From an uncultured Bacilli bacterium (lineage in GTDB: Bacteria; Bacillota_I; Bacilli_A; RFN20; CAG-826): 64,000 bases of DNA. Below, piece by piece: positions 1,504-26,725 of the stretch (position 1 is its first letter; each line of letters opens with the position of its first letter). The notes under the pieces are model-generated. The model saw only the letters and a program-made list of their open reading frames with translations, did not search any database and had not been told where the DNA came from. The translations under genes were made by a program, and so were the position numbers. The DNA is taken from NCBI GenBank assembly GCA_944350425.1, contig CALVOX010000002.1, positions 83,649 to 147,648 on the forward strand, given 5' to 3'.

Positions 1504-1506
1504 ATT

Positions 1507-3273: not shown

Positions 3274-3405
3274 ATTATTTCCACCAAGTTTGTCACAACT
3301 TCAAAAAGTTTATCATAATTTAAGTTAATTTTAAATATGCCCAAAATCCCAAAATAATGTTTTCAACTTTGCGTTTATCTATTGATAGAAGTTAATTGGT
3401 AATTT

Positions 3406-3447
3406 AAAAAAAGGAGGGGAAGTTTGTTGTTTGTCGTCCCTCCTTTT
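3406..3447 (-). terminator. Probable intrinsic terminator between lipoprotein gene 3553-6141 and mcrB
   Basis: AAAAGGAGGG...CCCTCCTTTT inverted repeat, followed by a T-run on the minus strand. Confidence 0.5.
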
Positions 3448-6164: not shown

Positions 6165-6193
6165 ACTCTATCTTAAAAAAAAAAAAAACGCAA
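6165..6193 (-). promoter_or_regulatory. Promoter with poly(T)14 in spacer: TTGCGT-17bp-TAGAGT
   Basis: A14 at 6175-6188 on +. On - it reads TTGCG-T14-AAGA-TAGAGT, followed by a GAGG RBS and the ATG at 6141. Confidence 0.7.
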
Positions 6194-6247
6194 GGCTTCG
6201 ATATACATTTCTTGTGTGAAATAAATTTTTGTCTTTTTATAAACATC

Positions 6248-6285
6248 AAAAAAATGGGAAGCGATACTTTTTTTGCTTCCCATTT
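6248..6285 (-). terminator. Intrinsic terminator of gene 6303-8285
   Basis: AAATGGGAAGC...GCTTCCCATTT hairpin with a T-run on the minus strand. Confidence 0.75.
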
Positions 6286-6302
6286 ATTAAATAGATTAGA
6301 AA

Positions 6303-8285
6303 TTACTTAATTGAATTAAGATTAACTGTTGAAGACATTCCAACAATTTCGCCTTCTGCGTTATATAATTCAATCATAAGTGTAATATTATTTACTGCTT
6401 TTAGAGTTAAGTTATCGCTATATCCTTCACCATTATTAAATTTGCCACTATCATGATAAACGACGTAAGCGCCATCTTCATAAGCCCATCTTGTTTCGTT
6501 AACTCCTAATGTTTCATCAACTTTAACTACTTCATTTAAAGTTGTTACATAAAGGCTAGTTGCAGTACTGCTTGTTAAATCAGAAATTGTATATTCATCA
6601 GAATATAAATCACTTAATAAAGTTCCGCTTACTTTTTCATCATTTTCATAAGCTTGTAAATATGTACTCAATCTAATTTTAAGAGTTACTGCATCTTCTG
6701 GTAAACTAGAACCGTTAACTTGTAACATCAAGGAATTATTTTCACCTTTAGTTAATGTGAAATTATTATTTAATTCGATAACTGGAAGAACTTTTACAAG
6801 ACTTTCGTCGATTGTATTATTTTCTAAAGTTAATTCTGAATAATATAATTCATATTTTTCTTCACTTTGACCTGGGCAAGCAATAAATGTATTTGCACCG
6901 TTATATCCGATTATACTTCCTTCGTTAACGCAGTTTTTAAATACAAACTTAGCATCAGCGTTTTGACCAGCACTATAATTTCCAACAAATGCTGCAACAT
7001 CTCTACCTCTTATATTTCCATAATTTTTGCAGCCATCAAAAATTACTTCACAAGGTGTATTTGGTGTTGATGCTACGTAACCTCCTAAAATTCCAGAACC
7101 ATATCCTGCCCCAAAGTCTAGATTATAATAGTTAACAATATTCTTGAAAGTAAATTGTTCGCCACTATATCCAGATCTAGCAAAAGCAACAATTGGTCCG
7201 TTATTATTAGAAGCTGTGTAATATTGACCATTTACATCTGCAGGAACTCCTGAAGTAAGATTTTCAAAATTTGAGCCTGTTTCAGCAACATAGATAAAGC
7301 TTCCAATTGATCCGTCAGCATCAGGTGTACAAATAATTGTACCGTTTTTTAAAGTTCCATAATATCCATTAATATAGGAATTATCTTCTCTAGTTAAAAC
7401 TTTTGCATTTAAATCAATGCTTCCCTTAAAAGAAACACCTTCTTCTACTGTATCTAAAGAAACATCATTATTTAATTTAATACTATAATTAGAGCCGCTA
7501 ACGTCAGTATTGTTAAAAACATTATGTATTTGTTCATCAGTTGAAACTTGTAAAGGATCGCTTTCACTTCCGCTACCGCCTTCAAATAATTTTTCTCCAG
7601 CAACACCTTCACTTATAACGTTTCCGGCTGCATCAAGTTCAGCACCAGTATATATAACCCCATCTTTAAAGTATGTAGTTCTTGTAGTAGTTTCATCTTT
7701 ACTCACAAAGTTAGCTTGTACGACCATGCCGTTTTTAACCATTGTAGTTACAAATTCACCAACGCCATCAACATAATCGATTTCATTATAAGTTGTTCCA
7801 TTAATTACTAACGAATCAAATGTATAGCCATCTTCAACATGAATATAGAAAGTAACTTCCGTTCCTTCTATTGCACTACCAACACTTGGAATAACATATC
7901 CTCCTTCGCTTGGCAAAATTGTATTAGACCATGCTGTTTTTCCATCTTGACCATTACTCCCTGAAGAACCGTTACTTCCATCTTCACCTTTAATATTCAT
8001 AACAAGTGACCATGTTCCATTTTCTTTTTGATATAAATCACCTGTCTTAGAATCGATGTAAATATCGCTATCTTTCCCTAGACTATCTTCTGGTTTTCCT
8101 TCTCCAGTTAAAATTAATGAACCGTCTTGTCCGTCTTCACCATTTTCTCCGGCAGGACCTTCAGGGCCTTGTGGTCCTTCTGGACCGATTGGACCTTGTT
8201 CGCCTTGATTATTACATGAAGTAATGCCCATACCGACGATTGAGCATAAAGCAAGCAAACTTAAAAATAATTTTCTTTTTTGCAT
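6303..8285 (-). CDS. Surface lipoprotein, collagen-like + GLUG module (family member B)
   Basis: First ~135 aa nearly identical to member A. One FEGGSGSESDPL module, then a different C-terminal passenger (CKNYGNI/CVNEGSI repeats). Confidence 0.85.
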   Translation of the reverse strand: MQKRKLFLSLLALCSIVGMGITSCNNQGEQGPIGPEGPQGPEGPAGENGEDGQDGSLILTGEGKPEDSLGKDSDIYIDSKTGDLYQKENGTWSLVMNIKGEDGSNGSSGSNGQDGKTAWSNTILPSEGGYVIPSVGSAIEGTEVTFYIHVEDGYTFDSLVINGTTYNEIDYVDGVGEFVTTMVKNGMVVQANFVSKDETTTRTTYFKDGVIYTGAELDAAGNVISEGVAGEKLFEGGSGSESDPLQVSTDEQIHNVFNNTDVSGSNYSIKLNNDVSLDTVEEGVSFKGSIDLNAKVLTREDNSYINGYYGTLKNGTIICTPDADGSIGSFIYVAETGSNFENLTSGVPADVNGQYYTASNNNGPIVAFARSGYSGEQFTFKNIVNYYNLDFGAGYGSGILGGYVASTPNTPCEVIFDGCKNYGNIRGRDVAAFVGNYSAGQNADAKFVFKNCVNEGSIIGYNGANTFIACPGQSEEKYELYYSELTLENNTIDESLVKVLPVIELNNNFTLTKGENNSLMLQVNGSSLPEDAVTLKIRLSTYLQAYENDEKVSGTLLSDLYSDEYTISDLTSSTATSLYVTTLNEVVKVDETLGVNETRWAYEDGAYVVYHDSGKFNNGEGYSDNLTLKAVNNITLMIELYNAEGEIVGMSSTVNLNSIK

Positions 8286-8308
8286 TTTTAAATACCTCGA
8301 GTGTCGAA

Positions 8309-8331
8309 ACTCTACCTTAAAAAAAACGCAA
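8309..8331 (-). promoter_or_regulatory. Promoter with poly(T)8 in spacer: TTGCGT-11bp-TAGAGT
   Basis: A8 at 8319-8326 on +. Same -35 and -10 hexamers as member A, but a shorter tract. Confidence 0.65.
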
Positions 8332-8436
8332 GACTTCGGGAAAGTATTTAACCTTAAGCTAGTTTTTTTGTCTTTTTTTGATTTCGTTGAAATTATTTTT
8401 AATATGTCTATATATGATTAAGTCTTTAAATTATAT

Positions 8437-8570
8437 TTAGAGTGCAGAGTTAAAATAATGTCCTCTAGTGTGTTTAGAAGGATTAAATGTTTTAATGTTA
8501 GAATTAGATTCTAAAATAGATTTAAAATTAGCAGGAATAGATTCTACTTCTTATTTAGATTCGTGCTAAA
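8437..8570 (-). repeat. Degenerate direct copy of the 3' end of the U32 gene (10020-10155)
   Basis: Encodes ...ILESNSNIKTFNPSKHTRGHYFNSAL* versus ...HYFKSAL* in the intact gene. Has an internal TAA and a small deletion at its 5' edge. Confidence 0.9.
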
Positions 8571-8590
8571 ATAATAATTAGTGGGTAAAA

Positions 8591-9187
8591 TTATAAACCA
8601 AGAACATATTCCTTGCTAAATTCATCTTTTGTTATTGTAAAACGCACAATATAAGGCTCGTCACTATCGTAATATAGTTTCATTATTTCTAAATCAAGCC
8701 CATCAAAATATTTAGCATTTTCATCCATATAATCGCTTATATTGAAACCATCATATAAATCTTTTGGTATATAGTAGTAATTATTATTCCTTATGTAAAA
8801 TATTGTTCCATTGCTCGATATTGAATATAGTCTTCTCATTTCACCATATCTATAACAATAATATATATCACGGAAATTACCATCTAGAACAATTTCATCC
8901 TTATTCCCTAATTGATAATTATTAATATCTAAAGTAATAGGGAATAACTCTATGAATTCTGTATAAAGAATAACTCTATGAAAATATTGATCGTTTTCCC
9001 AAACTAGCGAAACAAACCAAGGTGCAGAATCATCACTTGGTACAACTACTTTTTCACCATTAAAATAACTCACCGTATAAAATGGTGGTTCTACTTTATT
9101 GACTATTTCTTCTTTTTTACAAGAGGAAATAGTTAATAATGAAATTGTTAATAATAATGTAGTTATATATTTATTCATCTTTTTCAT
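8591..9187 (-). CDS. Lipoprotein, paralog of 9192-9719
   Basis: Lipobox ISSC. Shares EPxxY, PWFxSL, SxNG, YYYxP and FxIxDY segments with its neighbour. Confidence 0.75.
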   Translation of the reverse strand: MKKMNKYITTLLLTISLLTISSCKKEEIVNKVEPPFYTVSYFNGEKVVVPSDDSAPWFVSLVWENDQYFHRVILYTEFIELFPITLDINNYQLGNKDEIVLDGNFRDIYYCYRYGEMRRLYSISSNGTIFYIRNNNYYYIPKDLYDGFNISDYMDENAKYFDGLDLEIMKLYYDSDEPYIVRFTITKDEFSKEYVLGL

Positions 9188-9191
9188 ATAG

Positions 9192-9719
9192 CTAGTAATA
9201 CCAAAGATTTAAAATTCTTAAAATCTCTTCTGGCAAATTATGAGTATCCCAGGAATACTTATCAAAGTAATCAAATATTTCAAAACTAGTACATATCTCC
9301 TGAGGTAAATAATAGTAACTCTTCGTTTCTCCATTATAACGATACAAAAATCCATTCTTAGATAACTGACAACAATCTTTTGTAAGCCTCGTTCGACATG
9401 CTTCTGAAAGTCTTAAATCATTAACAATATCAATAGTGGAAAGATCTGTTAAAGGTAAATAGTTGTCCTCATCTAAAAATGCTTCACCAAAGTTATCTAA
9501 AAAGTAATGATATGGAACAACATCTCCTGCAGTAGAAGCAATCGGATTGTTAAGAGAGAAAAACCATGGTTCTCGATTATCGGTATAAACCTTGTATCCA
9601 TCAAAAGGATAAGGGAGAATGTAGTAAAGTGGTTCTTCCTCAACTATTTCTTCTGTTTCACAAGAAGTTAGTAAGAAAAAAGAACAAGCAAATAATAATA
9701 AAAGCTTCTTACCTAACAT
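9192..9719 (-). CDS. Lipoprotein, paralog of 8591-9187
   Basis: Start moved to ATG 9719 (MLGKKLLL..., AGAGGA RBS). Lipobox LTSC. Confidence 0.75.
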   Translation of the reverse strand: MLGKKLLLLFACSFFLLTSCETEEIVEEEPLYYILPYPFDGYKVYTDNREPWFFSLNNPIASTAGDVVPYHYFLDNFGEAFLDEDNYLPLTDLSTIDIVNDLRLSEACRTRLTKDCCQLSKNGFLYRYNGETKSYYYLPQEICTSFEIFDYFDKYSWDTHNLPEEILRILNLWYY

Positions 9720-9894
9720 AAATTCCTCTACTAACATAGCCATTACAATAAAGGTATGGTGCATATTCTACAGTTATTATATCAGGCCATAAAGAAAGTC
9801 TTCTATCAACATCATCATGATAATTAGATGAAGATAAAAGCAATATAGAAATCAGTAAAAAAATTAACTTTTCAAGTGCTTTTTTTACTCTCAT
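9709..9894 (-). CDS. Small hypothetical secreted/membrane peptide
   Basis: Signal-like hydrophobic N-terminus. Overlaps the start of the next lipoprotein. Confidence 0.4.
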   Translation of the reverse strand: MRVKKALEKLIFLLISILLLSSSNYHDDVDRRLSLWPDIITVEYAPYLYCNGYVSRGIYVR

Positions 9895-10019
9895 AACCTA
9901 AAATTTTGATTGAAACTTATATTCTACTATTAGTATAACAAACTATTAGTCAATATCAATAAGTAGTTAATTTCCATATTGTGCTCTTTACGCTTTATTA
10001 TGAACAACCTCTAAATTAT

Positions 10020-12434
10020 TTATAAAGCACTTTTAAAATAATGTCCTCTAGTGTGTTTAGATGGATTAAATGTTTTAATGTTAGAATTAGATTCTAAAAT
10101 AGATTTAAAATTAGTAAGAATAGATTCTACTTCTTCTTTAGATTCATCGCTAAAACATAATCTAAAATAATTGATATGGGAAGAAAAATTAGATATATCA
10201 TCAATTAAGTTTAAGGCTTTAGAATTAAGGATATTCATCGTACAATCATCGTTAAACATTAAACTAAATTTCTCATATTTATCTTTAATAGAATACTTAT
10301 ATTTCTTACAGTTAGGACATAATCCTAAATTATTAAGAATACAATATTTAGTATGCATTAATTTGGTTTTACCATAGATTATTAATTCTACTTTAGGATA
10401 TGTTTTAAATGTATTGTAGTAATTGTTAATAATATTATTTATTCGATCTTTATCTAGTTCTAAAGATAAAGTTACCCTATCTACATTCTTATATGAAAGT
10501 AAATAGGCTAAAGATAAGTAATTAGATACATTAAAAGAAGAATCTAAGATTAACTTAATATCTTTGTTTAAACGATATTTATAAATAGAAGAATAACCAC
10601 CTACTAATATTTCGTTATTATATTCTTCTTTTAATGTATCATAATCTTCATAATATATTTCATTATTTCTTCTTACTATATTCTTAAAATAGATATGTTT
10701 AATATTTAGTTTCTTACATATTTTATATTGTTCGAAGTTAGATACTTCTACTACTATTTCTTTAATGTTATTAGTATTAGTATCATACTTTCTAACTCTA
10801 ATGTTAGAAAGTAAGTTAAGATAATTATTATTATTAAATTTAATAGAACTAGATGTTTTAATTTCTTTATATTCTTCATTTAAAATATATTCTTCTAGTT
10901 TATTTATTACATCTCTTCTAAGTTCATTTAAGTATTTTAAAGGTATAAAGATATTAGAATCTATATCTAGATTAATATTATCTAAAATAAATGGTGTATC
11001 ATTTAATTTTGATAATTGTTTAATAATGTTATCTTTACTAGTTATATTACTTATTGCTTCTTCTACTAAATAATCTTGATGAATAGAAGAACATATTTCT
11101 TTATCTTTATAATTTAAAGATAAAGAAATAGGATGATTAATCCTTGCTTTAAAAGTAAAAGTAATATGTCTTTTATAATACTCTTTTACTTTTAAAGCAT
11201 GTTCTTCTATTTCTTTAATATAACTTACATCTTTAGTTACATATACTTTAGAATTAAGTTTAATATATGATTTATTTTTAGAATTATTCTTAACTAGAAT
11301 TATATTATTCTTAGTTTCTTTAGAACTTAGTATTTCTTTTTTATTAATATCAAATAGTTTTTCGATAAAGATAGATAAATCACTTGTTAGATTAATATTA
11401 GATTCATCTTCAATACGGATTTGATCACCTTTAGCAATATCGTTATCTTTACTATATAGTTTTATTTTGATGAAGTTATTAAAGACGTTAATAACTTCAC
11501 CTACTAGATATCCTTTATTATTTGGTCTAAAGATATTAGCGATATCTTTAGAACTTTCATTAAACATAAAACCTTTAGTAAAGCCACGATTAAATAATTT
11601 ATTTAAGTTGTTTATTAGTAGTTTATTAGTACTAATGTTATTTTTATTATTTAAATTATCTAATAATTTACGATAAATTGATGATATTCCCCCAACATAG
11701 GTAGGTTCTTTCATTCTTCCTTCTATTTTTAAAGATGAGACAAAAGATATATCTTTTAAATATGAAGATATATTTAAATCTTTTAAAGATAATAAATAAC
11801 CACTATTAAGTAGTTTAGAGTTAGTTTCATCGATTAATGTATATATTTGTCTACAACAAGCTGCACATCTTCCTCTATTTCCACTTCTTTCTCCTATAAA
11901 AGAAGAAAATAAACAGTTACCGGAATAAGAAACGCAAAGCGCTCCATGAGCAAATACTTCTAATTCAATATCTACCTTATTATATATATCCTTAATAGTA
12001 TCTAAAGGAGTTTCTCTTGCTAAAACTACTTGACTTACTCCTTCTTCTTTCATTAATTTTGCTCCATAAATATCATCTATTCCCATTTGAGTAGAGGCAT
12101 GAGCTTTAAGAGAAACATAATTAGTAGTGACATATTTAAGTAATATTAAATCATTAACGATAATCGCATCTACTTTCATTTTTGCTAATTCATCTACTAC
12201 TTTAAATGCTTCAATTAATTCTTCATCATAAAGCATAATATTTAACGTAACGTTAATCTTAACGTTACGTAAATGAGCATAATCAACATATTCTTTAAGT
12301 TCTTCTAATTTAAAATTAGAAGCATATGCTCTAGCATTAAACTTATTTATTCCTAAATAAACTGCATTAGCTCCATTACTAATGGCATAAAAGAAAGATT
12401 CTTTAGATCCAGCAGGAAGAAGTAATTCCATCAT
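10020..12434 (-). CDS. Peptidase U32-family Fe-S protein (long form, RlhA-like RNA hydroxylation)
   Basis: ELLLPAGS, GANAVYLG, HASTQ, LARE, HGALCVSYSGNC, NRGRCAACCR, LKIEGRMK and a C-terminal TRGHY. Start likely MMELL at 12434. Confidence 0.85.
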   Translation of the reverse strand: MMELLLPAGSKESFFYAISNGANAVYLGINKFNARAYASNFKLEELKEYVDYAHLRNVKINVTLNIMLYDEELIEAFKVVDELAKMKVDAIIVNDLILLKYVTTNYVSLKAHASTQMGIDDIYGAKLMKEEGVSQVVLARETPLDTIKDIYNKVDIELEVFAHGALCVSYSGNCLFSSFIGERSGNRGRCAACCRQIYTLIDETNSKLLNSGYLLSLKDLNISSYLKDISFVSSLKIEGRMKEPTYVGGISSIYRKLLDNLNNKNNISTNKLLINNLNKLFNRGFTKGFMFNESSKDIANIFRPNNKGYLVGEVINVFNNFIKIKLYSKDNDIAKGDQIRIEDESNINLTSDLSIFIEKLFDINKKEILSSKETKNNIILVKNNSKNKSYIKLNSKVYVTKDVSYIKEIEEHALKVKEYYKRHITFTFKARINHPISLSLNYKDKEICSSIHQDYLVEEAISNITSKDNIIKQLSKLNDTPFILDNINLDIDSNIFIPLKYLNELRRDVINKLEEYILNEEYKEIKTSSSIKFNNNNYLNLLSNIRVRKYDTNTNNIKEIVVEVSNFEQYKICKKLNIKHIYFKNIVRRNNEIYYEDYDTLKEEYNNEILVGGYSSIYKYRLNKDIKLILDSSFNVSNYLSLAYLLSYKNVDRVTLSLELDKDRINNIINNYYNTFKTYPKVELIIYGKTKLMHTKYCILNNLGLCPNCKKYKYSIKDKYEKFSLMFNDDCTMNILNSKALNLIDDISNFSSHINYFRLCFSDESKEEVESILTNFKSILESNSNIKTFNPSKHTRGHYFKSAL

Positions 12435-12644
12435 ATAAATTGATTTTATCATAGTTAGATTTAAGAATTAACATTTAAAATATTCATCTAATATTGTTCT
12501 TCCAAAGTTTCTACTTTTAATATCAACTTCTTTATAGTTTCTAGAATAAGAAGGATAATTTTCACTAATAAATTCTGAAATATAGATTATATCTGATGTA
12601 TCATTTCCTTTTGATTCATGAAAATTGCAATATAAATTTCGACT

Positions 12645-12996
12645 TTTTTAGATATGGACTCGAAAAATAAAGCTGTTTTGATAATTTGTGGTTTGCCAAA
12701 TTAAAAGCAAATACTTGAGCTAAACATTCATGAACCATTAAATCAAAGAATAACTGCTAAAGTGAATTTGAAGAGTTGACTAAAGAGGAGAAAAAATTAC
12801 ATTGAATCAAAAATTATAAGTGCAGGATTAAATTTAAACTTTTTTGACCTAATGCTATCCAGGCAGTTATAAATGGTTCAGAAAGTATTCCTCGAATAAT
12901 CGATAAAATTCTTGATATGCCAATTATATTAGGAGATAAACTAAATTTAACGATTTTCTTTCAAGATTTAGTTAAAAAGGTAACTAAGAGTATTTA
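12645..12996 (+). pseudogene. Remnant of an ExeA-like AAA ATPase (transposon helper type)
   Basis: Broken frames give DMDSKNKAVLIICGLP*..LNIHEPLNQRI / EELTKEE / NYIESKIISAG / NAIQAVINGSESIPRIIDKI. This resembles the C-terminal half of ExeA-family ATPases that partner DDE transposases. Confidence 0.65.
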
Positions 12997-13014
12997 AATA
13001 AATTGAATAAAAAA

Positions 13015-13590
13015 GCATCAAATAAAAGAAAAATTTCTCATCATTTTAAATGACGAGCATTTCCTCATTTTCTTTGAATATTATTTCTTTATTTAATTTG
13101 GAAAGTAACAAAATATCTTCATTTCGAATAATTAAAAATTCTTCAAAATCTAATGGATGCCTTTTAATATGTTCTTCTTCACTAGGGATAAGAATATCTT
13201 TTACATTTCTATTTATACTAATTAAACTTCCAATTTCAATATAGTCGTATCTTCCATCTTCAACTAATTCTTTAATTGCTTATCTAGCTCTAGGAAAAAG
13301 TTGAATTTCATCGAAAATAATTAACAAATTCTTTTATATAATCTTTTACCTGAAATTGTCATTAATGTTTGAAAAAAACAATCTAAATTAGGAAGTTCAT
13401 TAAAAGCACTACTTGCATTAAAAAAATCTTTCTCAAAATTTAAAATAATATAGGATTTTATTCTTTCCTTCCAAATTCTTCAACAATTGTTGATATGCCA
13501 ATTCTTCAAGCACCTTCAATTAATAAAGCACTACCTCCATTTCTTGGCTTGAATTCTAATAGTTTTTTATAGATTTTTCTTTAAAAAATA
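13015..13590 (-). pseudogene. Decayed AAA_14/DUF4143 ATP-binding protein (5' part)
   Basis: RKIYKKLLEF..SALLIEGA*RIGISTIVEEFG, IIFDEIQLFPRAR*AIKELVEDGRYDYIEIGSLISI..DILIPSEEEHI..HPLDFEEFL, with stops and frameshifts. Confidence 0.85.
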
Positions 13591-13655
13591 GTCTGTATAG
13601 TTAAATTATATCGATATTTATCGTTATTTTCAATTTATGAATATAGGAAAAAAAT

Positions 13656-13768
13656 AAATTCCGACAACTAAAATATTGCAAAAACTTTAAATCCCGATAA
13701 CTAAAATCGAGTTAAAACTATAAGTTCCGACAGTTTCAAAACAGCTATTTAACTAAATTTTGACAAGT
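13656..13768. repeat. Degenerate 33-bp-period tandem motif (core AAATTCCGACA)
   Basis: Cores at 13656, 13689, 13722 and 13755: AAATTCCGACAAC, AAATCCCGATAAC, AAGTTCCGACAGT, AAATTTTGACAAG. Confidence 0.75.
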
Positions 13769-13793
13769 ATTTGAGTTATATTAAACCTAGTAC

Positions 13794-13873
13794 TAGTGAA
13801 AGATTTTTCATATTTAAGTAAAATCTTTCAGTATAGTGAATAATTTTAGTTGATTTTGTAAAATCTTTCACTA
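13794..13873. promoter_or_regulatory. Two tandem 40-bp palindromic operators TAGTGAAAGATTTT-N12-AAAATCTTTCACTA
   Basis: Half-sites at 13794, 13820, 13834 and 13860. They overlap a TTGATT/TAAAAT promoter candidate for the gene at 13895. Confidence 0.75.
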
Positions 13874-13894
13874 AAATAATAATAGAGGTTATTT

Positions 13895-15079
13895 ATGATA
13901 CTTAGAGAACATTATTTATCTAAAATAAGGGGATTCTATGATTCTGATTTAATTAAGATTATTGTGGGAATTAGAAGATGTGGGAAATCTATAATTTTAG
14001 AGCAAATTAGAGATGAACTTAAAAAGAAAACCGACAAAATATTATATTTAAATCTAGAAGATTATGATTTAGAAGAAAAGATTAAAGATGCTCGTTCATT
14101 ATTAGATTATATCAACGAACATAAAAAAGAAGGAAGAAACTACATCTTTTTAGATGAAGTTCAAAACATTAATGATTGGGCTAAAGCATGTAGATCTTTA
14201 AGACTTGAACATTCTTTATTTATTACTGGATCTAATTCTAAACTTCTATCTAGAGAATTTACTAAAGAATTAAGTGGAAGATATGTTTCTTTTCGTATTA
14301 AACCTTTTGTATATAAAGAAATTAAAGAATACGCTAAAGAATTAAATAAAGAAGTAAGTATCGAAGATTATTTAACATATGGTGGTTTCCCAGCAATGTT
14401 TAACTATAACACTAAAGAAGAACAAAAAGAATATTTAATTAATTTAAATGAAACCATCATTTTTAATGACCTTATTAATCGATACCGTATTAGAAAAGTA
14501 GATATCTTTAAAAGAATAGCTAATTTTATTTTTAGGTCTAATGCTAGAATCTATTCTGTTTCTTCCATTCATAAATTTTTAAACAATCAAGATATAACTT
14601 GTTCGGTTAATACCATAATGAAATATCTATCCTATTTAGAAGAAGCTTATGCTATTAATTCAATTAGTCCATATGATACAAAAATAAAAAGAGAATTACT
14701 TTATTATAAGAAAATATATGATGAAGATGTTTCTTTTAATACCATTAGAGCTAGTGTAGATTCAATAGATGTAACTCATAATCTAGAAAATATTGTCTAT
14801 AACGAACTAATTTATATGAGCTATGAACTTTATGTTTATACTAATAAAAACGGTAATGAAGTAGACTTTTTTGCATATAAAGATAATAAAAAGTATTACA
14901 TTCAAGTTTGTTATACTTTAGTTGATGAAAAAACTAGAGAAAGAGAGTTTAAACCGTTTAAAGAATTAGATAATGATTGTGGAAAAATAATTATCACTTA
15001 TAATGATCCAATAAATTGGTCGAACGTTAATGTTAGACACCTTAATTTAAAAGAATTCTTACTTTTAGAAGATTTATAA
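13895..15079 (+). CDS. AAA_14/DUF4143 ATP-binding protein
   Basis: GIRRCGKS, FLDEVQ, ITGSNS, LSGRY, YGGFP, LENIVYNEL, EVDF..YIQV. Confidence 0.9.
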   Translation: MILREHYLSKIRGFYDSDLIKIIVGIRRCGKSIILEQIRDELKKKTDKILYLNLEDYDLEEKIKDARSLLDYINEHKKEGRNYIFLDEVQNINDWAKACRSLRLEHSLFITGSNSKLLSREFTKELSGRYVSFRIKPFVYKEIKEYAKELNKEVSIEDYLTYGGFPAMFNYNTKEEQKEYLINLNETIIFNDLINRYRIRKVDIFKRIANFIFRSNARIYSVSSIHKFLNNQDITCSVNTIMKYLSYLEEAYAINSISPYDTKIKRELLYYKKIYDEDVSFNTIRASVDSIDVTHNLENIVYNELIYMSYELYVYTNKNGNEVDFFAYKDNKKYYIQVCYTLVDEKTREREFKPFKELDNDCGKIIITYNDPINWSNVNVRHLNLKEFLLLEDL

Positions 15080-15192
15080 GATATATTTAATAAGGACATT
15101 AGCCCTATAAAATGTAAAAATAACAATTTATTCGGTATAAAAATTGTAATTATATTGATAAATGTTATTAATTTATTAGATTTTATTAAGTT

Positions 15193-16365: not shown

Positions 16366-16516
16366 ATTTATTTATCCTCTTTTTTTAAATTAACTTAAAT
16401 TATACTAGGCATATTTATTCTTTGTTCTATAAATAATATGAAATACTAATTTCATATTAATAAAAAAGAAATAAATAATATTATAAAACTATAGCAATAA
16501 ATATATCTTATTCATG

Positions 16517-16564
16517 AGTTAATGATACTTTTTTAATGTTTTACTTAAAAAAGTATCATTAACT
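16517..16564. terminator. 20-bp perfect-stem hairpin downstream of mgtA
   Basis: AGTTAATGATACTTTTTTAA-N8-TTAAAAAAGTATCATTAACT. Confidence 0.6.
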
Positions 16565-16635
16565 AATATATTTCCTTTAATATAAATTAATTATTTTTAT
16601 TCTTTAGTTAAGTTAAAAGAATAACTTAATAGCTA

Positions 16636-19503: not shown

Positions 19504-19648
19504 TTAATATGACCTCCTATAAATTAAACATATAAAAGTAACAATATAAATATATTTAATAATACTTATCTAAACTATGTTAATTTTTATCTCGTTAATA
19601 ATACTAGATTAATATTAAAATGCAAAGAAAAAGATAATAATATATTCT

Positions 19649-19682
19649 AAAAAGAGATTACTACTGATTAGTAATCTCTTTT
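19649..19682 (-). terminator. Intrinsic terminator after the subtilase-lipoprotein operon
   Basis: AAAAGAGATTACTA-N5-TAGTAATCTCTTTT. Confidence 0.7.
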
Positions 19683-19714
19683 GTAGATAAATAATTAATA
19701 TAATAGTATTAATA

Positions 19715-20626
19715 TTAATAATTATAGAATGTCTTATGAATAGAATTAATTAGTAGTAAATCAAAACTATTAATGATATAAGCATCATATAGTTCTTTTA
19801 ATGATAATATATCGTTATTTTCTATGTTATAACCATATATCTCACGATATTCATCATTAAAAGTAAAGGTAAAGGTAGAAACTTTATATTTACTAGCTAC
19901 TTCATTATTTAACCTTAAATCATTATAACTAGTAATATATTCATTATTTACTAGTTCTACTAATAAATAAGAATTATATGTACCATAATAATTAATAAAT
20001 AATGTATCTTCTTTCTTAACATTAAATTCATTATCATAGATTGAAATAATATCATCTAAATTAGGTCTAGATATGAAACCATAATTTAAAATGTTATCTT
20101 TAGAAGTAGGTGTTTTAATATTATCAAGTAAATATTCATCAATATAATCTTGGTAATAGATATTAAACAAATTATTTATTTGTTTAATATCTTCTTTAGT
20201 TAATATCCCTTCTCCAAATGCTTCTTTTAAACTTAAAGTTAATCCATCAGCATTAACTTTAGGTAAGGGATTAACATTAGCTGAAGTGATAAAACTAATC
20301 TCATTATCAAAAAAACTAACTACTTCATAATCTTCATATGATGGTCTAGGGAATTCATCATTACTATTATAAGTTACATCATAAACAGTAACATTATTAT
20401 ATAGATAAGAATTAAAATAACCATAGATATGATTAATTCCATAAGTTATTTTATAACTTGTTCCTTTATCATTATTTGAACTAACTTCTTTATCTTTAAT
20501 ACCGATTAATGTATCGAATTTATTAGAATCTAATCCAAAATAAATCTTATTATTAGTATCGTTTGAACATGATACTAATAATAAACCTAAAGATAGAAAT
20601 GATAGTAGTTTAGTATTAAAATTCAT
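19715..20626 (-). CDS. Lipoprotein with internal duplication
   Basis: Start MNFNTK (GGAGAG RBS), lipobox LVSC. Repeated YGxxNSYL...LSLKE(A/L)...I segments. Confidence 0.7.
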   Translation of the reverse strand: MNFNTKLLSFLSLGLLLVSCSNDTNNKIYFGLDSNKFDTLIGIKDKEVSSNNDKGTSYKITYGINHIYGYFNSYLYNNVTVYDVTYNSNDEFPRPSYEDYEVVSFFDNEISFITSANVNPLPKVNADGLTLSLKEAFGEGILTKEDIKQINNLFNIYYQDYIDEYLLDNIKTPTSKDNILNYGFISRPNLDDIISIYDNEFNVKKEDTLFINYYGTYNSYLLVELVNNEYITSYNDLRLNNEVASKYKVSTFTFTFNDEYREIYGYNIENNDILSLKELYDAYIINSFDLLLINSIHKTFYNY

Positions 20627-21989
20627 ATAACTCTCCATTATTTAAATATGCTTTATAATCATTATAAGATAGATTAATAATTCCATTAATTACTTGCGTT
20701 TCTTTTACGTAATATAAACCATCAATTAGTTCATAACCTTCATAAATTGGAACATTTCTTGATAAAGTGTTAGGTCCAACAACAAATCCCATCTCTGCTC
20801 TTCCTTCACAAAGTAAGCATGTGGCATATCTATTTCCATCATCAAAAGCTCCACCAGCAACAACATGTCCTGACTTCATTTTTGCACCACATTCGCAAAT
20901 CGAATAATGGTATTTCGTATCAATATATTCATAAGAATCGCTATAATCGTGTTTATAATGAATGATTTTAGAAGCATCTAAAATTCCTCCGGTTGAACAA
21001 TAATTTGTAAGTGAAGAAACTTTAGAAGCAGAAGAAAGGATAATGTTTTTTACTTCTTTAGTCGTTAAATCTGGATATTCAGAAAGTAATGAAGCAGCTA
21101 CACCAACAACATGAGGTACTGCAAATGAAGTTCCTTCGTAAACATAATAAGAAGAATAATCATACGAACAAATAGATGGGACGTCACATCCTGGAGCAAA
21201 AATATCTACAACATTTTTTCCATAATTTGAATCAACCCATTTTGATTTACTACTTGTTGTTGCTCCAACAACAATCATATTATCAGTATTATATTCAGCA
21301 GGATAATAATTAATACTTGAACTATCTAAATCGAGTCCATAATTACCTGCAGAGGTTACAAATAGGCCTGGAAAATTCTCGATTGCTTCTTTTTCTGCTT
21401 CGTTATAAGTATTAAGCCCGCCAATACTATAATTTATAATGTCCACTTTATTTGAGGAACAATAATTAATCGCATCAACCAACTCATCACTATTAAAAGC
21501 TATATCCCCTTCACTATTATAGTGCCCACAAGCGACTGAAATAATCTCAACATTAGGGGATATTCCTGAGATTAATTTCGAGTTATTTGTTTTTGCTGCA
21601 ATTATTCCACTAATTGCTGTCCCATGATAAGTATCAATTCCTGAATTGAATGGTTTAAAAAAATCTGAAAAACTTATTGAAGTAGTTAAATTAATTCCGA
21701 CTGGAGAATCAGGATTTTTATTATCTATTCCTGCATCAATAATTGCTACTTTAATGTCCACATCACTTTTATTTAAATCAAAAACTTCTTTATAATTAAT
21801 TTGATCTAAATTCCATTGCAATGAATAGTAGGGATCATTCGGTTTAGCCTCGCTCAAGACATTTAAATTATTTACTGCTCTACCTATTTCATTTTTATCT
21901 TGAACGCGAAAAGCATCTTTTTCATTTACCGTTTTTACAGTTAATGATGTCAATAATGGTAAAATTGATAATCCACTTAATAAATTCAT
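20616..21989 (-). CDS. Secreted S8 (subtilisin-like) serine peptidase
   Basis: Catalytic D (IIDAG), H (HGT), oxyanion N (SAGN) and S (GTSFAVP). Cys/His-rich C-terminal tail. Confidence 0.9.
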   Translation of the reverse strand: MNLLSGLSILPLLTSLTVKTVNEKDAFRVQDKNEIGRAVNNLNVLSEAKPNDPYYSLQWNLDQINYKEVFDLNKSDVDIKVAIIDAGIDNKNPDSPVGINLTTSISFSDFFKPFNSGIDTYHGTAISGIIAAKTNNSKLISGISPNVEIISVACGHYNSEGDIAFNSDELVDAINYCSSNKVDIINYSIGGLNTYNEAEKEAIENFPGLFVTSAGNYGLDLDSSSINYYPAEYNTDNMIVVGATTSSKSKWVDSNYGKNVVDIFAPGCDVPSICSYDYSSYYVYEGTSFAVPHVVGVAASLLSEYPDLTTKEVKNIILSSASKVSSLTNYCSTGGILDASKIIHYKHDYSDSYEYIDTKYHYSICECGAKMKSGHVVAGGAFDDGNRYATCLLCEGRAEMGFVVGPNTLSRNVPIYEGYELIDGLYYVKETQVINGIINLSYNDYKAYLNNGELYEF

Positions 21990-22082
21990 TTTTTGCCTCC
22001 TATATTTTTCTTTATTCTAGAAAAAAAGAAAAAATATCGGCAAGAAACGAATCATGTCATATGTCTCTATTTCGTAGCAATC

Positions 22083-23126
22083 TTAAAAATTTGAAACAAA
22101 AGATGAAAAATTAAATTTTTCATAGTTAAGTTTTGGTAAATCGTGTTCGAATTTATTAATCGATAAAGTTGTTTCGCATTTAAAAATCGTTGGAATTTCT
22201 TCTCCTAAAAGATAACCGAATCTTGAAAAAGAAGCTTGAAAACTCATTCCGCTTGCATAATCGGCATAAATTCCAGACTCATCATTTGACCTAAAATAAT
22301 CAAATTTAAAGGATGGACAAAAATTAGGATTTAATTTGGTTTTTATGCTTGGTGAGTTAATTAATGCCTTGTATGATAAGCTGAATTGATTACATTCAAT
22401 ACTTTCGTTCATTGAATTTCCTTCAATATAAATTTTATTATCTTTTCTAGTAACTACTTCAGTTGGTAAATAACCAACTAGCGGGATAAATTCATTATTT
22501 TTATCAATCGTAAAAGATAGATAATCTATTCTAGAATTTTCGTTTGCTGCAATTGTTGCAAAGTTAGCAAATAAATATTCCCCGCCAATATTTGAAACAT
22601 TGGATTTAAATAGGTAATTTTGAAGAAAAAGATAACCATAGTTGTTGTTATACCCATCGAGTGAAATGCAATTAGCTCTTGTTTGAGCTAAGTCCCGATT
22701 TGAACCAATGTTAAATTGATGTTCAAGATCTCTTAAACCATATGGAGGATTTTCAGCTGTAATGATTAAATTAATCAACAATTCATGAACTTTGCGAGGT
22801 GTGGAAAAATTAGTTGCAAAAATATCGCCCAATATTTCTTCATCTTCATTAACCCATCTAAAATCACCGAATTTAATTAGAGTTACCTCATCACTCTTTG
22901 AAGCGTTATTATTTTGATTTTCTTCAAGAAAATCAAAATAATATATATTTATATTTAAGTCTACATGTCTACTATTATAGCCATATGTTCCATCTTCTCG
23001 TAAAAGCATTTCTTTTAAATCAGAAACGTCAAACTTTAAACCGTTTTTCCTAGAATCTTCATTTTGACAACTACAAAGAGAAAATAGCGTAATAGCAAAC
23101 AAACAAAGAACTCTATTTCTTTTCAT
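22083..23126 (-). CDS. Lipoprotein, unknown function
   Basis: Lipobox LCSC. Contains an in-frame CGG at codon 144. Confidence 0.7.
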   Translation of the reverse strand: MKRNRVLCLFAITLFSLCSCQNEDSRKNGLKFDVSDLKEMLLREDGTYGYNSRHVDLNINIYYFDFLEENQNNNASKSDEVTLIKFGDFRWVNEDEEILGDIFATNFSTPRKVHELLINLIITAENPPYGLRDLEHQFNIGSNRDLAQTRANCISLDGYNNNYGYLFLQNYLFKSNVSNIGGEYLFANFATIAANENSRIDYLSFTIDKNNEFIPLVGYLPTEVVTRKDNKIYIEGNSMNESIECNQFSLSYKALINSPSIKTKLNPNFCPSFKFDYFRSNDESGIYADYASGMSFQASFSRFGYLLGEEIPTIFKCETTLSINKFEHDLPKLNYEKFNFSSFVSNF

Positions 23127-23591
23127 AGAAGACCTCTTTGATAACTAAATAAACTAAAAAGATAATTAACAATATATCAAAATAAAATAAGCAATTAAAT
23201 AAAATTTGACCAAAGGTTGAAAAATCAATAAACCGCCATGCCCATGAGCTTCTTTTATAAAAAATTAATGGATTTAAATTAGCGTAAAGAAAAACATACC
23301 AAAAGAAATTTCTGCTAATATCAAAAAAATACATATGAGTAATATTTTAAAAGATCTCTTATCTAATTTAATATAATAGCATTCCATTCCATATATTAAA
23401 TAATCAAGACTAACATTATATTTAGAAACAATTGCATCTAAAAGGTCAAGGCTAACTCCGCCATTACCATTTTCTACTTTTGAAATAACTTGCCTAGATA
23501 TATTTAAACTTTCCGCAAATGTTACTTGGGTTAAATTATTTTTTACTCTAATATCTTTAATTCTTTTTCCGATTTCTTCTTCATTAATCAT
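23113..23591 (-). pseudogene. XRE-family HTH regulator with membrane domain, apparently frameshifted near 23275
   Basis: HTH (IGKRIKDIR..LTQ..FAESL..SRQVISKVENG..VSLDYLIYG) plus a TM helix ends at TAA 23274. The overlapping frame continues NPLIFY...second TM. Confidence 0.65.
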
Positions 23592-23715
23592 AAAGTTAAA
23601 ACTCTATAATAATTATAAAACAGAAGATATTTTTAATATACTATAATTAAAAATTATATAATGATTACTCAAATATTTATTGAAAATCTTTAAAACATAA
23701 TAATATTAGTGTAAT

Positions 23716-23753
23716 AAAAGGGGCTGTTAGAAAAATAAATTTCTAACAGCCTC
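23716..23753 (-). terminator. Intrinsic terminator of gene 23786-26668
   Basis: GGCTGTTAGAAA...TTTCTAACAGCC hairpin. Confidence 0.7.
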
Positions 23754-23785
23754 TAATAATAGTAATAATAATTTAAATAATATAA

Positions 23786-26668
23786 CTAATGTACATTAAT
23801 AGTAGAAAGTTCAGAACCTTCTTTTACATAGATCTTAGTAGTATGATCAAACATAGCATAACTTGCTTCATCAATATTTAATGTAGCTTTATATGTTCCA
23901 TCATCATAAACATAAATTTGATAATAAAATCTACCTTCAACTTGTTCTCCGTTATCAACAAATTTAACGTTAGTTAATGTTAATGTTGCATCATAGTTAT
24001 ATGAAGTTGTACTTGTATCACCTACAACAATTGCACTATAAGGAACAGCATTACCTGAACCCCAGTCTCCATCTAAATAAAGTTCATCTCCACTATAAGT
24101 ATGACTATGAGCAATAGTTGAATCGCTAATAGTAACATTACCACCTCTTACAATAAGACTTTGTTTTGTTCCTTCAATATAAGAGTTATTTTTAATATTA
24201 ACATTAGCATTAACGGTTACTAACATTGCCATTGAATCTTTTGTACCTGCTGTATCTGAACTTCCATCGGTAATAATCTTACTATTATCGATGTTGATAT
24301 TAACATTAGTAACTTTTTCGCCTAAAGTTGCATTTGTACCAATAGCAGTTGAACCAGCTTTTATAGTTGAATCAATAATGTTTAAAATTGAATCTTTGCT
24401 GCTAATACCAATTGCTGTGGTTTTTGCTTCAAGAGTTATATTCTCGAGTGTTAATTCTCCACCTGTAAAACTTTCATCTGTATTCTTACCCATATAAGCA
24501 AAGCCAAGATCACTTTTCGAGATAATTGTTCCGTTTTTAAAAGTAACTTTGCTTCCTTGACTTACAAATAATCCAAAACTATTGGCGTTACTAATTGTCA
24601 AAGTATTACCATCTAAATCGATAACTTTTTCGCAAGCTAACAATTTGTTATCAGGGGTTAAAGTGGTGAGTGAAAAATTTCCGTTTAACTTAAAATACTT
24701 ACCTGTACTGCTAGTAAACATATTTTGAGGTTGTGAAGTCCATCCTTTTGTATTAACAATTAACGGATCTTCAGCAGTATTAGAACCTCCGGCAAATGTG
24801 ATATTTGAACCTTTTACAGATGATAAATTATTAACTTCTCCATTATCATTTAAATATAATTTTGAATAATATACCCCATTATGATATACGTTTTCTTGTG
24901 GCTCTTTATCTAAAATATTAATAATTGAATGATCATTTTTACAAATATTTGTTTCGTCAAATTGACTTAATGTTGTTGAATCAATATTTAATGTAGCGTT
25001 ATATTCATCACTTTCGCCAAACATATAAATATCATATGGTTCAGTTCTAGCGGCTCTAGTAGTTGTTTCTCCTTCACCTTCACTAGGTTTAATATCTGTT
25101 CTTACATAACTGACATTTTTCATTGTTAAAGATGCAGGACCTGGGTAAGCGCTTGTTGATTTATCGCCAATAACAATGCCAGCTGTTGCGACTCTATTTC
25201 CGTCACCATATTTATTACCATAATGATGAGGATCATCATTAAATGTTGGATCGGTATCATCTGTTGGATTATAGAAATAACCAGCTTCATATTCTAATTT
25301 AACATTATCTAATGTAACATCACCTGCTCTAACTATTAAAGCTTGTCTTTGACCTTTAATAGTTGAATTAGAAATATTAACTGTCGCAGGAATATTAACC
25401 ATAAATCCTGCGTTATCATGAAGAGCTGCCTCAGCAATAAAAGATGAATTAGTAATATCTATATTGACGTTTTCGATTTGATCATCTTTAAATAATGATG
25501 CATTAGTTGAAAATGGCATGACGCTATCTTTAATATTAACACCATCCATCTTAATGTTAATATTTTTAACTTCATCAACACCTTGATTTGCTCCTGGACC
25601 AACAACTATTCCAAAAGAATTAATATCGATGTTTTCAAGTGTTAAATCTGCATCATTATAAACAAATAATCCACCATTAGAACCAATTGTTCCATTCTTT
25701 ATAGAAACAGAAGAACCATCTAAAGCGGTTAATGCTTCGCTAGAATTTAAAGTTTTTTCACTTAAATCAAGAACAATATTTTTATCTTTATTGTTAGTTC
25801 CAACTAATAGAGTAGAAACTGTTAAACTATCTCCTTCAACACCACTCAATGAGAAATACATTGTTTCTTCATCTTGCTGAGCAGAAGCAATTTGTGATAA
25901 TTGATCAGCAGTTTTAATAATTAAAGGATCATTTTCTTCACCAGTACCATCTTCAAATTTAGGAGCATCTTCTACTTTGCTATTTAAATCAGGAACAAAT
26001 TCACCTACTGCGTTAAAAGTACCTAAATATCTAGTACCATCGACATAAGCACTATCGCCTAATTCACTTAAATTTTTGAAAGAAGCTGCAATTACATATC
26101 CTCCTTCTTTCATGGTAATAGATTCTGAAACAACAACGTTTGTTGTTTCATCTAAAGTAAATGTTAAAGATGAAGTATTACCATCTTTATCAACTACTTC
26201 TAATTTATCTAAATAATATCCGCTATTTGGATATGCATTAACTGTAAATGTAGTACCAACTACTCCACTACCAATAGATGTCGTTAAATATCCGCCTTCA
26301 GTTGGTAGAACTGTATTTGACCAGGCAGTGTGTCCGTTTGAACCAGAACTACCAGATGAACCATCTTCTCCATCTTCGCCTTTAATATTCATTACTAAAG
26401 TCCAAGTACCATTTTCTTTTTGATAAAGATCACCTGTTTTAGAATCGATATAAATATCAGAATCTTTTCCTAAAGTATCTTCTGGTTTACCTTCTCCAGT
26501 TAAAATTAATGAGCCATCTTGTCCATCTTCACCATTTTCTCCAGCAGGACCTTGAGGACCTTCTGGACCAATTGGACCTTGTTCACCTTGATTATTACAA
26601 GAAGTTATGCCCATACCGACGATTGAGCATAAAGCAAATAAACTTAAAAATAATTTCTTTTTTTGCAT
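23786..26668 (-). CDS. Surface lipoprotein, collagen-like + two GLUG/beta-helix modules (family member C)
   Basis: Same N-terminus as members A and B. Two modules, each with (G/S)TNA, QxLIVRxG and GNxVxxxxIVxGD motifs, also present in module 1 of member A. Confidence 0.85.
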   Translation of the reverse strand: MQKKKLFLSLFALCSIVGMGITSCNNQGEQGPIGPEGPQGPAGENGEDGQDGSLILTGEGKPEDTLGKDSDIYIDSKTGDLYQKENGTWTLVMNIKGEDGEDGSSGSSGSNGHTAWSNTVLPTEGGYLTTSIGSGVVGTTFTVNAYPNSGYYLDKLEVVDKDGNTSSLTFTLDETTNVVVSESITMKEGGYVIAASFKNLSELGDSAYVDGTRYLGTFNAVGEFVPDLNSKVEDAPKFEDGTGEENDPLIIKTADQLSQIASAQQDEETMYFSLSGVEGDSLTVSTLLVGTNNKDKNIVLDLSEKTLNSSEALTALDGSSVSIKNGTIGSNGGLFVYNDADLTLENIDINSFGIVVGPGANQGVDEVKNINIKMDGVNIKDSVMPFSTNASLFKDDQIENVNIDITNSSFIAEAALHDNAGFMVNIPATVNISNSTIKGQRQALIVRAGDVTLDNVKLEYEAGYFYNPTDDTDPTFNDDPHHYGNKYGDGNRVATAGIVIGDKSTSAYPGPASLTMKNVSYVRTDIKPSEGEGETTTRAARTEPYDIYMFGESDEYNATLNIDSTTLSQFDETNICKNDHSIINILDKEPQENVYHNGVYYSKLYLNDNGEVNNLSSVKGSNITFAGGSNTAEDPLIVNTKGWTSQPQNMFTSSTGKYFKLNGNFSLTTLTPDNKLLACEKVIDLDGNTLTISNANSFGLFVSQGSKVTFKNGTIISKSDLGFAYMGKNTDESFTGGELTLENITLEAKTTAIGISSKDSILNIIDSTIKAGSTAIGTNATLGEKVTNVNINIDNSKIITDGSSDTAGTKDSMAMLVTVNANVNIKNNSYIEGTKQSLIVRGGNVTISDSTIAHSHTYSGDELYLDGDWGSGNAVPYSAIVVGDTSTTSYNYDATLTLTNVKFVDNGEQVEGRFYYQIYVYDDGTYKATLNIDEASYAMFDHTTKIYVKEGSELSTINVH

Positions 26669-26694
26669 AAGTAAAACCCCTTTTCGATGCTTTA

Positions 26695-26725
26695 ATTCTA
26701 ATCATAAAAAAAAAAAAAAAAACAA
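26695..26725 (-). promoter_or_regulatory. Promoter with poly(T)17 in spacer: TTGTTT-19bp-TAGAAT
   Basis: A17 at 26706-26722 on +. On - it reads TTG-T17-ATGAT-TAGAAT upstream of ATG 26668. Confidence 0.65.

Follow-up and report, generated by a model that had tools for sequence, protein, structure and literature searches.

Poly(T) promoter spacers of paralogous surface lipoprotein genes as candidate phase-variation switches in an uncultured Bacilli lineage

Phase variation through the length of a homopolymer in a promoter spacer is textbook knowledge for pathogenic mycoplasmas, Neisseria and Haemophilus, and to our knowledge reports of it from uncultured gut commensals are scarce. The vlp genes of Mycoplasma hyorhinis encode variable lipoproteins, reportedly described by Citti and Wise in 1995. 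Vlps are short proteins with tandem-repeat tails, and the Mollicutes are not known to have mismatch repair. The type of repeat differs among such systems in that vmm has TA repeats and the Neisseria genes, which include porA and opc, have poly-G or poly-C, and several of these promoters behave as rheostats rather than strict switches. The vlp family is described in an excerpt of PMC4198240, and an excerpt of PMC2268961 states that insertions or deletions in the spacer between the -35 and -10 elements switch vlp, maa2 of Mycoplasma arthritidis and vmm of Mycoplasma mycoides. Promoter-spacer homopolymers are likewise reported for Neisseria, for example at nspA (PMC6389960). The present analysis concerns three paralogous lipoprotein genes, designated A, B and C, together with the poly(T) tracts that precede them, in a stretch of 64,000 nucleotides (nt; hereafter the window) from an uncultured Bacilli bacterium (GenBank assembly GCA_944350425.1, contig CALVOX010000002.1, positions 83,649 to 147,648).

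From its sequence features, the locus probably represents a system for slipped-strand phase variation of surface lipoproteins similar to that of Mycoplasma vlp, in which A is predicted to be on, C off or weakly expressed, and B, whose tract has collapsed, probably locked off. As in M. hyorhinis, each lipoprotein gene appears to be transcribed on its own, the signal-peptide ends are conserved and the mature parts diverge, a homopolymer occupies the spacer between the -35 and -10 elements (where indels turn vlp transcription on and off, and where switching is predicted here), and the host apparently has no cell wall. Unlike the vlp products, the proteins encoded here are 660-960 amino acids (aa) long with Gly-X-Y, immunoglobulin (Ig)-like and possibly beta-helical modules, and scans of Pfam and NCBIfam matched no Mycoplasma lipoprotein family, the matches being limited to collagen, InlB B-repeat and pectate-lyase-like families. 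The likeness to vlp drawn in a preliminary description of the locus is one of proposed mechanism and does not extend to a sequence relationship with Vlp proteins in these scans. The host also differs from that of vlp in that TGA is a stop codon and in that it is a gut bacterium whose lineage is not one of the classical mycoplasmas. The locus resembles maa2, vmm and Neisseria nspA in that a simple repeat between the -35 and -10 elements would set the promoter strength of a surface protein gene, and differs from them in organism and protein family. The genes and their flanking elements are as follows.

3553..6141, minus strand: member A, an 862-aa lipoprotein with the signal peptide MQKRK..ITSC, Gly-X-Y triplets at 28-55, an Ig-like B-repeat and then a variable, possibly beta-helical part
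6165..6193, minus strand: promoter-like element of A, with a putative -35 TTG, a spacer of 17 that is mostly T14 (6175-6188) and a putative -10 TAGAGT
~3405..3447 (ends approximate), minus strand: terminator-like hairpin and T-run 3' of A, read by eye
6303..8285, minus strand: member B, a 660-aa lipoprotein whose C-terminal part is unrelated to that of A
8309..8331, minus strand: promoter-like element of B, with TTGCGT, T7+AAGG (spacer 11; T8 tract 8319-8326) and TAGAGT
~6248..6285, minus strand: terminator-like hairpin and T-run 3' of B, read by eye, about 55 nt upstream of the A promoter
23786..26668, minus strand: member C, a 960-aa lipoprotein with two repeated modules in its C-terminal part
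26695..26725, minus strand: promoter-like element of C, with TTGTTT, T14+ATGAT (spacer 19; T17 tract 26706-26722) and TAGAAT
23722..23751, minus strand: intrinsic-terminator-like hairpin 3' of C, called by a terminator scan

The tracts read A14, A8 and A17 on the plus strand and, since they lie upstream of minus-strand reading frames, are T-runs on the sense strand. Each is located 33-37 nt upstream of the ATG, with TTG adjoining its 5' end and TAGAGT (A and B) or TAGAAT (C) beginning 4-5 nt 3' of it. Re-reading the sequence, with the values for B and C recomputed, confirmed the tract coordinates of the preliminary description and its spacer lengths (17, 11 and 19). Its statement that every gene has its own terminator was also borne out, by the scan for C and by hairpins followed by T-runs for A and B, whose loops are too long for the limit of the scan. 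T14 and T17, which it had named as the longest homopolymers in the window, proved to be the longest in the whole genome.

The rarity of these tracts becomes apparent when the whole genome is surveyed (1,150,323 bp in 17 contigs, 95%-complete, 27.7% GC; 27.8% GC in the window). Homopolymers of at least 8 nt number four in the window, namely two A8, one A14 and one A17. Genome-wide there are 2922 A/T runs of 6 nt, 976 of 7 nt and 55 of 8 nt, none of 9-13 nt, and beyond that length only T14 and T17. By our own arithmetic, extrapolation of the 6-to-7 ratio predicts about 160 runs of 9-13 nt where none was observed, which indicates that long runs are strongly avoided throughout the genome with T14 and T17 as exceptions. 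The rarity of these two tracts is far beyond chance. Other simple repeats are similarly scarce, as no di- to heptanucleotide repeats of 6/5/4 units occur in the whole genome, where the longest short-unit repeats are (NN)5 (n = 5) and (NNN)4 (n = 24). The sole G/C run of at least 8 nt is a C9 outside the window, on contig 6 at 23554-23562 (positions 755-763 of locus L113). On the sense strand this run is a G9 located between TTGCGG and TAAAAT at a spacer of 17, and the gene about 70 nt 3' of it encodes a 209-aa protein that begins MLKRKLLMTILPVLSAAVIAGAGFSAW and has an N-terminal signal/anchor but no Pfam family. A homolog of this protein in another genome of the genus (locus L051) has T14 upstream. 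The contig-6 gene is a second candidate phase-variable surface gene, and all three of the long repeats of the genome lie in promoter-like spacers of genes for exported or surface proteins.

Relatives of the family were retrieved with the N-terminal module as the query. The preliminary description had proposed comparing tract lengths across related genomes, and this comparison found conserved flanks and differing lengths. The upstream region of B is identical to that of its ortholog in a sister species in 91% of columns over ~155 nt, and the single gap in the alignment, of 7 nt, falls inside the tract, which is T8 here and T15 in the ortholog. Two other members in the sister species have T14 and T19, and a fourth tract, T22, is preceded by the same motif and lies 9 nt short of the end of its contig. 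In a second clade, represented by three genomes, the arrangement is TTG, T(n), AATT and TAG(A/G)CT, with n = 7, 9, 9, 14, 15, 15, 16, 16 and 16; the copy with T7 has lost the TTG as well. Within this clade, one set of three orthologs is 90% identical per column, with tracts of T7, T9 and T14. Taken over 16 family promoters in five genomes, the tract lengths are 7, 8, 9, 9, 14, 14, 14, 15, 15, 15, 16, 16, 16, 17, 19 and 22. The conserved TAG[AG]NT is always found 4-5 nt downstream of the tract, and TTG directly precedes the tract in 13 of the 15 promoters that have both borders on the contig. Among the 13 family promoters with both hexamers, the spacer is 17 in five, 16 in three, 18 in one, 19 in one and 10-11 in three, so that nine have an inferred spacer of 16-18; most are at the optimum or one to two slips from it, and a minority have collapsed by ~7 nt. 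The homopolymer is not invariably T, given that between TTG-type and TA..T hexamers some members of the family from further genomes have C9 or, in two promoters with spacers of 17 and 18, G10. In a complete census of T-runs of at least 10 nt in five genomes of the genus, 10 of 12 were located at family promoters (6/7, 3/3, 1/1 and 0/1, with one genome having none).

For spacer length to act as a switch, the host must be sensitive to the distance between the two promoter elements. This was examined with crude gene calls (885 genes), which provided 461 upstream regions in which non-coding sequence spans 70 nt or more. TTG occurred 17 nt upstream of -10-like hexamers at 4.4% of the 1183 sites in these regions, compared with 1.0-2.0% at each of 11 other spacings within 12-23, and coding sequence used as a control had no peak (1.9% at a spacer of 17; range 0.5-3.1%). 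The genome-wide peak at 17 indicates that the host uses a -35 TTG at a strict 17-nt spacing, and with such strictness the precondition for a switch based on spacer length is in place. We infer from sequence that the hexamers at the tracts are a real promoter. Taken alone, the hexamers are no proof of one; the spacing rule is one independent support, and another is that relatives keep the arrangement even where the adjoining sequence has changed. In A, B and C, as in 10 further family promoters, a homopolymer lies between the predicted -35 and -10 elements.

The host, a genome-reduced gut bacterium, looks like a wall-less lineage that lacks mismatch repair and uses the standard genetic code. 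TGA ends 39 of 719 long frames, none of which runs on for 100 codons or more, and the lack of long read-through at these ends indicates the standard code. Neither MutS_I nor the MutL DNA_mis_repair domain was found in the 95%-complete genome, whose sole MutS_V protein is MutS2 (MutS_V + Smr). Instability of homopolymers in a bacterium without mismatch repair would explain the genome-wide avoidance of repeats. Penicillin-binding protein transpeptidase and Mur ligase domains were likewise not found in this 95%-complete genome, and in a cell without a wall lipoproteins would be the exposed surface. Together with the lipobox, this supports surface exposure of A, B and C. Words (short subsequences) from the locus were found in 16 sequencing runs from nine studies, and four runs of a single study, labelled chicken gut metagenome, contain a fraction of 0.97 of the sampled words. 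Three of these four runs may be the source of the locus. No RNA runs are among the listed runs that contain locus words.

The mechanism proposed for the locus is as follows. A, B and C would be monocistronic genes for surface lipoproteins that begin alike, with a lipid anchor, a short stalk of collagen-like sequence and an Ig-like module, and differ in their C-terminal domains, and each would be transcribed from a sigma-A-type promoter whose -35/-10 spacer is almost wholly poly(T). Long homopolymers would gain or lose bases at a high rate by slipped-strand mispairing, the high rate being expected since neither MutS1 nor MutL was found. Each such gain or loss would alter the spacer and, with it, the strength of the promoter. 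Expression of each paralog would then be heritable, stochastic and reversible, which is to say phase-variable, and would lead to antigenic or adhesive diversity. Member A, with its optimal 17-nt spacer, would probably be ON, whereas C, at 19 nt, would probably be weak or OFF and two slips from the ON state. B, left with a spacer of 11 nt by the loss of seven T's, would probably be locked OFF. We infer from sequence both the change of tract length within populations and the ON and OFF states.

Several observations weigh against this reading. The hexamers of A, B and C are weak, matching the consensus at 7 of 12 positions, and a scan for consensus promoters does not list them, although that scan performs at chance level in this genome (25 matches versus 26.1 expected, and 23 versus 21.6). 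In the C promoter an alternative -10 element, TATGAT, formed by the last T of the tract and ATGAT, abuts the tract and would reduce the spacer to 13, so the expression state of C is uncertain. The T8 tract of B has an ordinary length for this genome, in which there are 55 such runs; it is for this reason unlikely to switch, and it counts as a tract only because its flanks are homologous to those of the other family promoters. As the tract lengths were taken from a metagenome assembly, they are consensus values that may be off by one base. Across the genus, runs of T12 or longer are present in 26 of 60 genomes and absent from the remaining 34. Nor do long T-runs mark surface genes alone in the genus at large: of 33 tracts of at least T12 in 28 genus loci, only 6 (in four loci) are followed by a gene for a lipobox protein. 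A few of the others precede signal-peptide proteins (a TasA-like protein and the family of the contig-6 gene), and the rest are located before rpmF or cytoplasmic genes, after hairpins or at contig ends. A run of at least 9 nt is present within 160 nt upstream of 13 of 41 family-like lipoprotein genes and absent from 28; this count covers distinct genes with enough upstream DNA, leaves out member A, was de-duplicated on the first 60 aa so that some paralogs were merged, and includes one mis-started gene. Stable hairpins stand directly 5' of the tract in two relatives (L108, -17 kcal/mol, z -5.9; L111, z -2.9). A scan of metagenome contigs with the N-terminal 154 aa returned one unrelated locus and no further strain. 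A final point is the precedent of the vpma genes of M. agalactiae, in which a T-tract just 5' of the -10 element plays no part in variation according to an excerpt of PMC2268961.

The Vpma promoter is a precedent for a static architecture, in which a strong constitutive promoter would have the T-run as a rigid spacer rich in A and T, or as an UP-like element, and the lengths would have drifted slowly between genomes. As in the Vpma promoter, poly(T) is immediately upstream of the -10 element of a variable-lipoprotein gene. The Vpma locus, as described in the same excerpt of PMC2268961, has a single promoter and switches by Xer1-mediated inversion, whereas each gene here has its own tract, no recombinase was found among the scanned neighbours and no convincing inversion sites were seen. 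The nine of 13 spacers at 16-18 would also be expected of a constitutive promoter under purifying selection. A constitutive spacer, however, need not be a homopolymer, and in a genome with no other A/T run longer than 8 nt and no simple repeats the run has evidently been kept against a general purge. Close orthologs have indels in the tract only. G10 or C9 at the same position in other members is hard to explain by the structure of AT-rich DNA, and tracts of T14-T17 would hardly be stable, given that MutS1 and MutL were not found. A static role for the tract is for these reasons judged unlikely.

The proposal made in the preliminary description, that the length of the spacer homopolymer acts as a lipoprotein switch, is thus strongly, if indirectly, supported by the rarity of the repeats, the tract-only differences between orthologs, the 17-nt spacing and the failure to find MutS1 and MutL, and is tempered by the vpma precedent and by the tracts found elsewhere in the genus. 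It had also regarded B as OFF and C as OFF or weak. The 11-nt spacer of B is indeed off the optimum, but the collapse relative to the T15 ortholog suggests a locked promoter rather than a live switch. For C the 19-nt spacer agrees with the suggested state, which the competing TATGAT nevertheless makes uncertain.

It is also conceivable that variation proceeds mainly by recombination or gene conversion between paralogs through their conserved 5' ends, or by inversion of a promoter segment, with the tracts being incidental. Exchange would be permitted by the cassette-like layout of the genes, the first ~400 nt of which are ~89% identical per column in A, B and C and are followed by complete divergence, and a 17-nt imperfect inverted repeat (82%) flanks the C promoter with arms at 26686-26702 and 26820-26836. 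Inverted repeats of this kind are short and AT-rich and number 32 pairs in 3.8 kb, and therefore look like chance. The neighbours scanned (McrBC, an AAA ATPase, AhpC, HAD, a helix-turn-helix protein and three proteins without a family) include no recombinase. Each gene moreover has its own promoter-like element and terminator, and recombination leaves the rarity and position of the tracts unexplained. Recombination as the main mechanism is accordingly rated very improbable.

A role of the T-run as the U-tail of an intrinsic terminator, or as an insulator against upstream transcription rather than as part of a promoter, fits the hairpins that directly precede TTG and the T-run in L108 and L111 and the GC hairpins that precede some other tracts in the genus, such as that of L040. 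At B and C, however, no hairpin precedes the tract (z 0.07 and 1.08, respectively), and upstream of A the terminator of B is already present ~55 nt further away. Tracts of T14-T22 far exceed the length needed for a terminator tail, and neither TAG[AG]NT at 4-5 nt nor a spacing of 16-18 has a role in termination, which leaves this explanation with very little probability. That the runs or their lengths are artefacts of assembly or sequencing is the least credible explanation, as many long T-runs of the genus do lie within ~50 nt of contig ends and in one relative (L036) an N gap separates two copies of a single flank, one with T19 and the other with T16, but the tracts studied here are interior to a 160-kb contig, four sequencing runs contain 97% of the sampled locus words by word match, and the same promoter architecture with long tracts at homologous positions recurs in separate assemblies of four other species.

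Common to the three proteins is a signal peptide that ends in the lipobox I-T-S-C (by pattern match), followed by ~9 Gly-X-Y triplets, a conserved beta motif, a further ~5 triplets and an Ig-like module of the InlB-B-repeat type. Over the N-terminal 150 aa, A is 92% identical to B and 83% identical to C, and the N-terminal ~130 aa are near-identical in all three. Streptococcal Scl1/Scl2 and Legionella Lcl are surface proteins that likewise have a Gly-X-Y stretch close to the N-terminus, but the proteins here have ~9+5 triplets, a lipobox anchor and no LPXTG at the C-termini of A, B and C, and they score far below the NCBIfam cut-offs (22-28 bits, versus 325-500 for the families and 325-400 for Scl1/Scl2). 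Pfam Collagen (PF01391) gave 22.7-25.8 bits (E 1e-5), below its cut-off of 27.2, although precomputed Pfam annotation places PF01391 on most of the database homologs. The term 'collagen-like' used in the preliminary description is borne out by the presence of the Gly-X-Y stretch and weakened by the small number of triplets and the score below the Pfam cut-off; 'collagen-like lipoprotein' can stand as a loose label derived from sequence. The Pfam scan of A, B and C also gave a match to Flg_new_2 at its cut-off, and A alone matched the pectate-lyase-like family PF12708 (E 0.0013, below the cut-off).

Among 89 database homologs, one is a full-length ortholog of B at 90% identity, belonging to a cluster (P0006) of 22 member sequences from other assemblies, and most others cover only the N-terminal 3-54% of the query. 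An AlphaFold model of B has a mean predicted local distance difference test (pLDDT) score of 52.1 and is confident only for residues ~56-310, with values below 50 over most of 321-660. When this model was used in a fold search (VIA-align), the best match was 3n6z (Z 8.3, root-mean-square deviation 4.1, 208 aligned), which is in the noise range of the tool, as are the beta-helices of tailspikes, lyases and adhesins that were matched at Z 6-7.6. It is possible from the modelling that the family has a beta-helical variable domain. No solved structure is related to A by sequence at E 0.01 or better. A phage origin of the N-terminal module was considered and rejected, as tblastn gave no match in 50,697 phage records.

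A literature search within one collection of papers found no publication on a poly(T)-promoter collagen-like lipoprotein system. The mechanism is known from mycoplasmas and what is new is the host lineage and the protein family, so the locus is most likely a new example rather than a new mechanism. Comparison of the sequences suggests that the promoter module, with T or G tracts, is conserved across the genus. A broader idea, which is offered tentatively, is that the genus possesses a 'contingency promoter' (TTG, poly-T or poly-G, TAGNNT) in gut Bacilli that have no cell wall and keep the standard code, placed before collagen-stalk lipoproteins and at least one other surface family in genomes where mismatch repair is absent and other simple repeats have been purged. 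'Live' tracts (14-22 nt, one to two slips from the 17-nt optimum) and 'collapsed' tracts (7-9 nt) would then record the birth and death of switches, and tracts preceded by hairpins could double as an OFF-state terminator tail and a switchable spacer. If this idea is true, mycoplasma-style antigenic variation would be a general strategy of commensal, genome-reduced Bacilli that could be read from metagenomes.

The signature at this locus is unusually clean, as the only long repeats in 1.15 Mb are in promoters of surface genes and the arrangement recurs in relatives with tracts of other lengths. If switching is real, exposed lipoproteins would vary in the gut of birds, where antibodies or phages plausibly exert the pressure, and tract lengths in metagenomic reads would report the surface variant expressed in each host, providing a culture-free handle on the interaction between host and commensal. 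The case also illustrates how the loss of mismatch repair may shape repeat avoidance across a genome while selected contingency loci are spared.

Some features of the surrounding DNA and of the wider family complete the description. Directly 3' of A, at 157-3273 of the window on the minus strand, is a McrBC-type restriction pair comprising an AAA_5 ATPase of 588 aa and a McrBC component of 448 aa. An Rfam scan of window positions 6200-27300 found no known RNA element at the gathering score. The 265-nt gap 5' of B (8327-8590, minus strand) has promoter-like matches at 8619-8590 and 8569-8541 in the promoter scan, and B might be transcribed from these despite its collapsed tract.

The preliminary description had also suggested searching the genome for more genes with the same promoter. 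Further lipoprotein genes were found, and all of them lack a tract. Two are distant paralogs that lie shortly before the start of the window. The others form a three-copy family of their own on contig 7, which has no homopolymer in its upstream regions and encodes lipoproteins in frames of ~880-1000 aa. The three loci of this family are listed below.

13167-13325, minus strand, contig 7: lipoprotein gene locus L006
14316-14465, plus strand, contig 7: lipoprotein gene locus L007
20296-20451, minus strand, contig 7: lipoprotein gene locus L008

The contig-7 genes share an identical signal peptide with a Gly-X-Y start and a nearly identical leader of ~50 nt, and this paralogous surface family might vary by another route. 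In another genome (L011; G020 contig 24), a (TA)9-like dinucleotide repeat abuts the 5' side of the ribosome-binding site of a gene for a collagen-like lipoprotein, and may be a different type of repeat switch in the same protein family. In the L036 locus (G006 contig 9) a run of N has the same flank on either side, namely TTGAATTCG, a T-run, ATAATG and then the start codon ATG of a gene for a protein other than a lipoprotein, with the T-runs at 72-90 (T19) and 198-213 (T16); the N run may be an assembly gap that arose from tract-length heterogeneity or from sequencing trouble at the run. Finally, at 1501-1645 of L041 (G055 contig 1), runs of T15, T19, T19 and T23 occur on one strand within 150 nt, in a cluster that lies upstream, in the opposite sense, of a gene for a signal-peptide protein that begins MHKKFFTFAVPLLGAAVLVGAGFSAW.

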